Part shown: piece after piece, positions 41 to 418 of the stretch | Layout: the number at the start of each line of letters is the position of its first letter | How positions within the stretch are numbered: the first letter of the stretch is position 1 | Origin: Escherichia coli | Lineage (GTDB): Bacteria; Pseudomonadota; Gammaproteobacteria; Enterobacterales; Enterobacteriaceae | Length of the DNA: 418 nt | Strand: one strand, 5' to 3' | Assembly: GCF_003334405.1 (NCBI RefSeq) | Contig: NZ_QOWM01000066.1 | Made by a program: the position numbers and the translations under genes | Notes under the pieces: model-generated | Seen by the model: the letters and a program-made list of their open reading frames with translations, nothing else | The model's database searches: none | What the model was told of the DNA's origin: nothing

Positions 41-418
41 ATGGAACTTAAAAAATTGATGGAACATATTTCTATTATTCCCGATTACAGATAAGCCTGG
101 AAAGTAGAGCATAAATTGTCAGGCATCCTACTATTGACTATTTTTGCCGTTATTTCTGGTGCAGAAAGTTGGGAAGATATAGAGGATTTCGGGGAAACAC
201 ATCTCGATTTCTTGAAGCAATATGGTGATTTTGAAAATGGTATTCCTGTTCACGATACTATTGCCAGAGTTGTATCCTGTATCAGTCCTGCAAAATTTCA
301 CGAGTGCTTTATTAACTGGATGCGTGATTGCCATTCATCAAATGATAAAGACGTCATTGCAATTGATGGAAAAACGCTCCGGCACTCTTATGACAAGAGT
401 CGCCGCAGGGGAGCGATT
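41..418 (+). pseudogene. ISAs1-family transposase (H repeat-associated protein), N-terminal 125 codons, interrupted by an in-frame TAA at 92-94; 3' end lies beyond the window
   Basis: ATG at 41 with upstream SD. Frame 2 translates to MELKKLMEHISIIPDYR then TAA (92-94), then continues with no further stop through 418: [108 protein letters not shown]. Similarity to the family continues on both sides of the stop in the same frame, so this is a nonsense interruption and not a frameshift. After the stop the first in-frame ATG is at 320, which probably explains why the ORF track did not report this frame. If the TAA is a sequencing error this would be an intact CDS. Confidence 0.7.

Follow-up and report, generated by a model that had tools for sequence, protein, structure and literature searches.

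Predicted N-terminally truncated transposases at the 5' end of ybfL, a known Escherichia coli pseudogene of the ISEc1/H-repeat family

The ybfL locus and its premature stop

The subject of this analysis is a stretch of 418 nucleotides (nt) of an Escherichia coli contig (NZ_QOWM01000066.1), hereafter the window, which matches E. coli K-12 MG1655, like many other complete E. coli genomes, at 100% identity and corresponds to positions 6001-6418 of the MG1655 locus labelled L001. It covers the beginning of ybfL (b0705), the transposase gene of H-rptC2, which is the middle one of three tandem ISEc1/H-repeat copies (ISAs1 family) located downstream of rhsC-ybfB-ybfC in K-12 (RhsC element). The fragment ybfQ is found on one side of ybfL and the truncated ybfD on the other, followed by ybgA and phr. 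In RefSeq, the MG1655 coding sequence (CDS) at L001 6041-7177 is described as 'ISAs1 family transposase; internal stop', and NC_000913.3 lists b0705 as a pseudogene (736900-737961). When the window was compared with b0705, the sequence, the neighbours (rhsC, ybfB, ybfC, ybfQ, ybfD, ybgA, phr) and the pseudogene status were the same and no difference was noted. ybfL is an already known, ordinary pseudogene, and the window is its 5' end, the truncated transposase predicted from it being very probably an annotation artefact rather than a gene product. As a catalogued pseudogene of the best-studied bacterial genome, ybfL in itself matters little, and what is useful about it bears on its annotation.

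The native start of the gene is the ATG at positions 41-43 of the window (plus strand, as for all features below unless stated otherwise), and a Shine-Dalgarno (SD)-like AAGGTG is present 5 nt before it (30-35), weaker than the AAGGAG of intact ISEc1 copies. From this ATG the frame translates as MELKKLMEHISIIPDYR and then meets the ochre codon TAA at 92-94 (codon 18), leaving a residual open reading frame (ORF) of 17 codons (41-94, native start to premature stop) with the same N-terminus as in intact paralogues. At this codon intact ISEc1, ybfD, ybfQ and yhhI have CAA (Gln), and Gln18 was found to be invariant in 24 aligned homologues (66-97% identity), likewise R17, K21, H24, K25 and L26. The premature stop is present where functional homologues have a sense codon, which is what defines a nonsense pseudogene, and, judged from the alignment, the lesion is a one-step CAA-to-TAA (C-to-T) change at a conserved position in the N-terminal domain. 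Past the stop the transposase frame is open to the end of the window (95-418, codons 19-126) and on to codon 378 (L001 7177), and in K-12 the normal stop follows at codon 379, TAA18 being the sole lesion of the gene. This long open frame is there because the inactivation of ybfL is recent. A programmed frameshift past the stop was considered and dropped, since ISAs1 elements have a single ORF and the A6 run, at 50-55, comes before the stop, where one shift cannot both bypass the stop and regain the transposase frame.

Family and domain searches were done with the ybfL protein in which codon 18 is read as Gln. The protein scored 414.6 bits against NCBIfam NF033564 (transpos_ISAs1), for which the cut-off is 70, placing it in the ISAs1 family, and the domains were found in the expected order, PF13808 (DDE_Tnp_1_assoc) at residues 8-94 (E 9.9e-32) followed by PF01609 (DDE_Tnp_1) at residues 102-343 (E 7.1e-31). 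The coding region of PF13808, at 62-322 of the window, is broken by the stop, and that of the PF01609 catalytic domain begins at 344 and continues past the window end at 418. A sequence search of solved structures returned no relative of the protein, the best E-value being 0.46. Near-identical intact copies are labelled 'ISAs1-like element ISEc1 family transposase' in other records. Consequently, the original prediction of a transposase gene with a premature TAA, made from the letters of the window, is confirmed by NF033564, by PF13808 and PF01609 and by the 'internal stop' of RefSeq; the frame that it described as open past the TAA to the window end is indeed so over 95-418, and the additional disabling lesions that it had named as a point that would speak against it were looked for and none was found in K-12, where codons 19-378 are open.

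The element to which ybfL belongs is enclosed by 18-nt inverted repeats of 89% complementarity at L001 5898-5915 and 7170-7187 and measures 1290 bp. The left one of these repeats, CAGGGAAAGATCACGTAA, precedes the start of the window by 103 to 86 nt, and from the window mapping and the inverted repeats positions 1-40 form a leader within the left end of this ISEc1/H-repeat copy. The same element ends were found in the intact ISEc1 copy at locus L012, and the length of about 1.3 kb with terminal repeats is that expected of such elements. The ybfQ copy has its own left end at L001 5518 and ends at 5897, exactly before the first base of the ybfL element (5898), while the ybfD copy (L001 7189-8140) abuts the right inverted repeat of ybfL. 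Because ybfQ is cut off at 5897/5898 and the left end of ybfD lacks its first ~25 nt, ybfL is the only structurally complete element among the three tandem copies. Both of its flanks are other H-repeat copies; ordinary target sequence is absent, so that there is nothing to compare for a target-site duplication. An Rfam search over the three H-repeat copies gave no match at E <= 1.

ISAs1 elements have a single ORF, and because the TAA at codon 18 breaks it, the ybfL element is a defective and not an active member of the family. In terms of protein family, domains and inverted repeats it is an ISAs1/ISEc1 element, and only an intact ORF is missing. With intact ISEc1 (WP_000420935.1, locus L012; paralogues yhhI, ydcC and ybfD) it has in common an element of about 1.29 kb, inverted repeats beginning CAGGG, a 378-codon ORF encoding PF13808 and PF01609 and a CDS that is 97.8% identical (25 differences in 1137 nt), whereas the intact copies differ from it by CAA18, GTG22, TTA26, D28, C35 and the stronger AAGGAG SD motif. 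In comparison with intact ISEc1, a divergent patch of 11 differences in 53 nt is found at 92-144, and the stop, D28G and C35F all belong to it. Across all 378 residues, only three positions of ybfL, G28, F35 and S43, differ from what at least 90% of homologues conserve, and the three lie just past the stop; neither G28 nor F35 occurs in the intact copies compared, and S43 is also present in an intact ISEc1 copy. These departures would fit either relaxed constraint on the patch or a divergent origin of the patch.

Candidate restart codons and their start signals

The original prediction held that ribosomes might reinitiate downstream of the stop, at in-frame TTG codons at 116-118 and 134-136 or at an ATG at 320-322, and produce a transposase lacking its N-terminus, an outcome that it called possible but unsupported since no convincing SD sequence was seen. 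All of these coordinates, and that of the TAA at 92-94, are correct; the three candidates are codons 26, 32 and 94, and a further TTG at 212-214 (Leu58) was missed. TTG116 (Leu26) is the first canonical start-type codon in any frame past the stop, from which it is separated by a 21-nt spacer. TTG134 (Leu32) and TTG212 are sense codons in every ISEc1-type copy compared, the former being the commonest start of gene callers, who predict from it a protein of 347 amino acids (aa). ATG320 (Met94) is invariant in homologues, encodes the last residue of the N-terminal domain and is the start of a 285-aa prediction. Several near-cognate ATT, ATC and ATA codons are also in frame. Start-type codons (ATG, GTG or TTG) are no more frequent than by chance: codons 19-126 include 4 of them, where 5.8 would be expected if the codon content were that of seven intact genes nearby, and the intact ISEc1 copy has 5 across the same codons.

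Duplex energies with the anti-SD sequence were -3.3 kcal/mol for TTG116, -2.5 for TTG134, -3.8 for TTG212 and -2.5 for ATG320, compared to a background median of -2.3 kcal/mol, with 31% of random positions at -3.3 or better. Real starts showed stronger pairing: -4.9 kcal/mol for the native ATG41, -9.2 for intact ISEc1 and -4.9 to -10.7 for eight annotated starts nearby (-5.2 to -10.7 without ybfQ, the start region of which is the same as that of ybfL). The mean unpaired probability was 0.29-0.53 at the candidates versus 0.66 at the native start. RNA folding of positions 70-165 gave a z-score of -0.74, with no special structure around the stop or TTG116, and a promoter scan gave 8 promoter-like matches versus 7.1 in shuffled sequences, with no excess; terminator-like matches were likewise as frequent as in the shuffles. 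The statement that no candidate has a convincing SD sequence is thus upheld by the ribosome-binding site check.

Codon 22 (104-106) is GTA (Val) in ybfL and GTG in intact ISEc1, ybfD, ybfQ and yhhI. A GTG at this codon, 9 nt after codon 18, would be the restart codon nearest to the stop, and with GTA in its place the TAA allele is without the best-positioned one. Codon 26 is TTA in intact ISEc1, ybfD and yhhI and TTG in ybfQ. The possibility that TTG26 was gained together with the stop as a compensatory restart was rejected, because ybfQ carries TTG26 with CAA18 and TTG26 is therefore a synonymous variant not tied to the stop. As far as codon content can tell, the TAA allele would, if anything, offer fewer restart opportunities than its relatives. 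The four candidates simply encode Leu (TTG116, TTG134, TTG212) and Met (ATG320) in the transposase and are not evolved restart sites. Consequently, the caution of the original prediction was justified, and its restart idea itself gains no support from codons that are sense codons elsewhere, from background SD pairing, from the 21-nt spacing or from the missing GTG22.

Two other signal-like motifs were observed in this region, both at chance-level frequency. A promoter-like TTGTCA-17-TATTTT begins at TTG116 (116-144), and a terminator-like hairpin, TCGGGGAAACACATCTCGA, with a T-rich tail is located at 189-207, the hairpin being also present in ybfQ.

Spread of the stop-bearing patch among ISEc1 copies

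A population search was performed on 5426 complete E. coli genomes. The exact 80-nt stretch around the stop (window 62-141) was recovered in 2667 records, about half of these genomes, and the same stretch with CAA was found exact in only 5 records, of which four are 759-nt truncated ybfL/ybfD fusions and one has a stop at codon 60. Copies with the TAA are present at three loci, namely RhsC (ybfL), yafV/min-5 (L011 1552-2688 and L016 1380-2516) and ydcC/pptA (L017 1380-2516). Between these loci the patch at 92-144 is identical and the first 120 coding nt are identical or show one difference, the remainder differing by 2-3%; the L017 copy sits behind a strong ISEc1-type SD motif. This identity of the patch at three loci suggests, from the comparison of the copies, a gene conversion that would have spread the null patch. 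Null patches shared between ISEc1 copies at different loci are the only by-product of note of this analysis and are mildly interesting.

Despite up to 30 nt differences, 12 of the 13 sampled full-length TAA copies are without further lesion, and a synonymous excess was noted among TAA copies (19:8 and 15:4). Truncation of the TAA copy to 759 nt is an additional defect in many genomes, E2865 among them.

Several variants of the locus were observed beside these copies. The ybfL copy of NCTC86 (L004 1552-2687) has, besides the TAA, an extra 1-nt deletion causing a frameshift, which may be a true second lesion or an artefact of the assembly. Some genomes (E2865, L018 and L020-L022) have ybfL and ybfD merged into one 759-nt truncated copy, and in others (L008-L010) ybfD is absent. 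Another null allele, Q60* (CAA to TGA), occurs with the same surrounding variants at yhhI of strain PI12 (L013 1553-2689) and at the min-5 site of ARL09/232 (L019 1380-2516).

Among GTDB species representatives, an exact 42-mer of the patch had no match and a 27-mer had one, in JARKOR010000224.1 (L023, 2399 nt), a contig labelled as a metagenome-assembled genome of 'Candidatus Nanosynbacter sp.'. This contig is E. coli rhsC-ybfC-ybfQ-ybfL DNA over its full length (98.8% identity), carrying the TAA and a 1-nt deletion just after it, and is almost certainly a mis-binned E. coli contaminant.

Origin of the truncated predictions and fate of translation past the stop

In NC_000913.3 the start given for b0705, 736900, coincides exactly with TTG116 and is 75 nt past the real ATG (the same boundary is found at L014 8901), and the RefSeq records of the Prokaryotic Genome Annotation Pipeline (PGAP) begin ybfL at the ATG (window 41). 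On NC_000913.3 this ATG is at 736825, and TTG134, TTG212 and ATG320 are at 736918, 736996 and 737104. By exact look-up in public protein collections, all four hypothetical products were found to exist as predictions: the 353-aa protein from TTG116 on 579 contigs, the 347-aa protein from TTG134 on at least 1000, the 321-aa protein from TTG212 on 1 and the 285-aa protein from ATG320 on 121, the last under the name 'H repeat-associated protein in rhsC-phrB intergenic region'. That a single locus has been given four competing starts implies that it presents no clear signal to gene callers. The left boundary of b0705 at TTG116 is a mechanical call of the first start-type codon after the stop, and neither this boundary nor the 353-, 347-, 321- and 285-aa 'ISAs1 family transposase' entries, which are mechanical calls as well, are evidence for a truncated protein.

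In nonsense polarity, the untranslated RNA past a stop codon is exposed to Rho-dependent termination and decay. At ybfL, ribosomes would load at the native ATG (41-43) by means of its moderate SD motif, make the 17-residue peptide, terminate at 92-94 and leave the mRNA, whereupon the ~1.1 kb past the stop would be essentially untranslated and exposed to such termination and decay. Reinitiation at TTG116 could occur at trace level only, and its product, without the conserved residues 14-25 of the N-terminal domain, would have no demonstrable role. A start at codon 26 or 32 would remove 18-24 of the 87 PF13808 residues, including the invariant block R17-L26, and a start at codon 94 would remove all of PF13808, leaving the DDE core; any start at codons 26-94 would thus keep PF01609 and lose part or all of PF13808, for which a role in DNA binding is assumed. 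In an AlphaFold2 model of the reconstructed protein (25 sequences), residues 1-100 had a predicted local distance difference test (pLDDT) score of 37-58, too low to tell which helices a truncation would remove.

An alternative that we regard as unlikely is that ribosomes terminating at the TAA reinitiate at UUG116 and make a 353-aa transposase without residues 1-25, which may exert dominant-negative control over ISEc1, as Tn5 Inh or lacI restart fragments do in their systems. The codon is the nearest canonical one in any frame, no lesion interrupts the frame past it in K-12 and in most of the copies sampled, and the product would keep the whole DDE domain. The restart codon is a UUG, nevertheless, with SD pairing at background level (-3.3 kcal/mol, as good or better at 31% of random positions) and neither adjacent to the stop nor provided with another efficient start signal, the nearest start-type codon of any canonical kind being 21 nt past the stop. 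In E. coli reinitiation falls steeply with distance (PMC10666635, PMC12548453): in three gene pairs a spacing of +38 nt took away 80-90% or all of it and spacings of +2 and +14 nt lowered it to a varying extent, even though the downstream genes of these pairs have AUG codons and SD motifs (Huber et al. 2023, PMC10666635), and spacing increases of less than 20 nt can already cut coupling substantially (PMC12548453). In the termination-reinitiation coupling studied by Huber et al. (2019, 2023) a stop is followed by a downstream start on the same mRNA, as it would be in ybfL, but the natural pairs overlap by 4 or 1 nt or are within about 10 nt of each other, whereas the spacer of ybfL is at least 21 nt and no SD motif accompanies it. 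That ybfQ combines TTG26 with CAA18 shows the codon not to be linked to the stop, the better-placed GTG22 is missing, and the product would be without the invariant R17, Q18, K21, H24 and K25 and would bear D28G and C35F at nearly invariant positions.

The lacI gene offers the precedent for such restarts. In the passage of PMC3694819 that cites them, restarts after an early stop at in-frame start-type codons yield dominant-negative fragments that keep the core of the protein, as the hypothetical ybfL product would in losing its N-terminal part. The lacI restarts were shown experimentally and give repressor fragments without the DNA-binding headpiece, whereas the nearest candidate in ybfL, at +21 nt, is a UUG that has no SD motif.

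Tn5 Inh, for its part, is an N-terminally truncated transposase that is without the DNA-binding residues of the N-terminus, inhibits transposition and has its own AUG, ribosome-binding site and promoter, being evolved and conserved. The hypothetical ybfL product would likewise be without the N-terminal part and have the catalytic and multimerisation part, a likeness that is conceptual only, whereas ybfL has no dedicated signal and its truncation follows an inactivating mutation. A dedicated internal start of the Inh type was not found, SD pairing being at background level at all four codons and promoter matches numbering 8 against 7.1 in shuffles. A related proposal, that the null patches TAA18 and Q60* have been favoured because they silence ISEc1 or because a TTG116 restart product acts as a trans-dominant inhibitor, is very unlikely. 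If it were true that a restart product exists and inhibits ISEc1, this would be a modest addition to the known self-regulation of transposases.

Some observations weigh against reading ybfL as a gene without a product past its stop. The transcriptome of a Shiga toxin-producing E. coli (STEC) lists ybfL(partial) with ybfC and rhsC, so that the region is transcribed in some strains, and is silent on translation (PMC6033998). Between the stop and TTG116, 21 nt away, no canonical start codon occurs in any frame, and in lacI, in the passage of PMC3694819 citing this work, restarts after early nonsense or frameshift lesions occur at codons 23, 24, 38 or 42; by analogy, a small amount of the 353-aa product from TTG116 may be possible at trace level. 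The intact downstream frames of the TAA copies, together with their synonymous excess, could look like purifying selection. Selection on the downstream frame was not accepted, however, as the variants are largely those of intact paralogues, and because these variants are common to both, gene conversion or recombination mosaicism explains the synonymous excess as well. The supplements of TRAINSPOTTER and of Stringer 2021 contained no entry for ybfL, b0705 or its coordinates, a result that is uninformative on translation and not negative evidence. Taken together, reinitiation is unsupported and somewhat disfavoured, and ybfL is best regarded as a pseudogene whose truncated transposase very probably belongs to the annotation.

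Independent internal initiation at TTG134, TTG212 or ATG320, which would give proteins of 347, 321 or 285 aa, the last a DDE-only protein, is highly improbable. ATG320 is the sole AUG among the candidates, and automatic annotation has called the three starts on at least 1000, 1 and 121 contigs respectively, but gene callers disagree among themselves, the three codons are sense codons in intact ISEc1-type copies, and their SD energies (-2.5, -3.8 and -2.5 kcal/mol) lie around the background median, with unpaired probabilities of 0.29-0.53.

Equally improbable is a readthrough or suppression of the UAA by which a low level of full-length transposase would be made and the element would be marginally active. 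In K-12 the gene has no lesion other than the stop, the element keeps its two 18-nt inverted repeats, a single T-to-C change would restore the gene and the CAA form of the patch exists in five genomes. None of these 5 CAA copies is intact over the full length, though, four being truncated to 759 nt and one having a further stop at codon 60. Among the stop codons of E. coli UAA leaks least, which also counts against readthrough, and a readthrough-promoting context was not seen around it. The native SD motif is moreover weaker than in intact ISEc1, and D28G and C35F hit nearly invariant positions.

That the 17-residue peptide MELKKLMEHISIIPDYR is a functional small protein has a negligible probability, for in spite of its AUG, its moderate SD pairing (-4.9 kcal/mol), an accessible start region (unpaired probability 0.66) and a TAA allele common enough to give 2667 records with the exact 80-nt patch, it is merely the transposase N-terminus cut by a point mutation, was not found in one searchable small-ORF supplement and was not seen to be conserved as a separate unit outside E. 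coli.

On the minus strand, a 67-codon antisense ORF is present at 131-334 of the window within the transposase coding region and is probably spurious.

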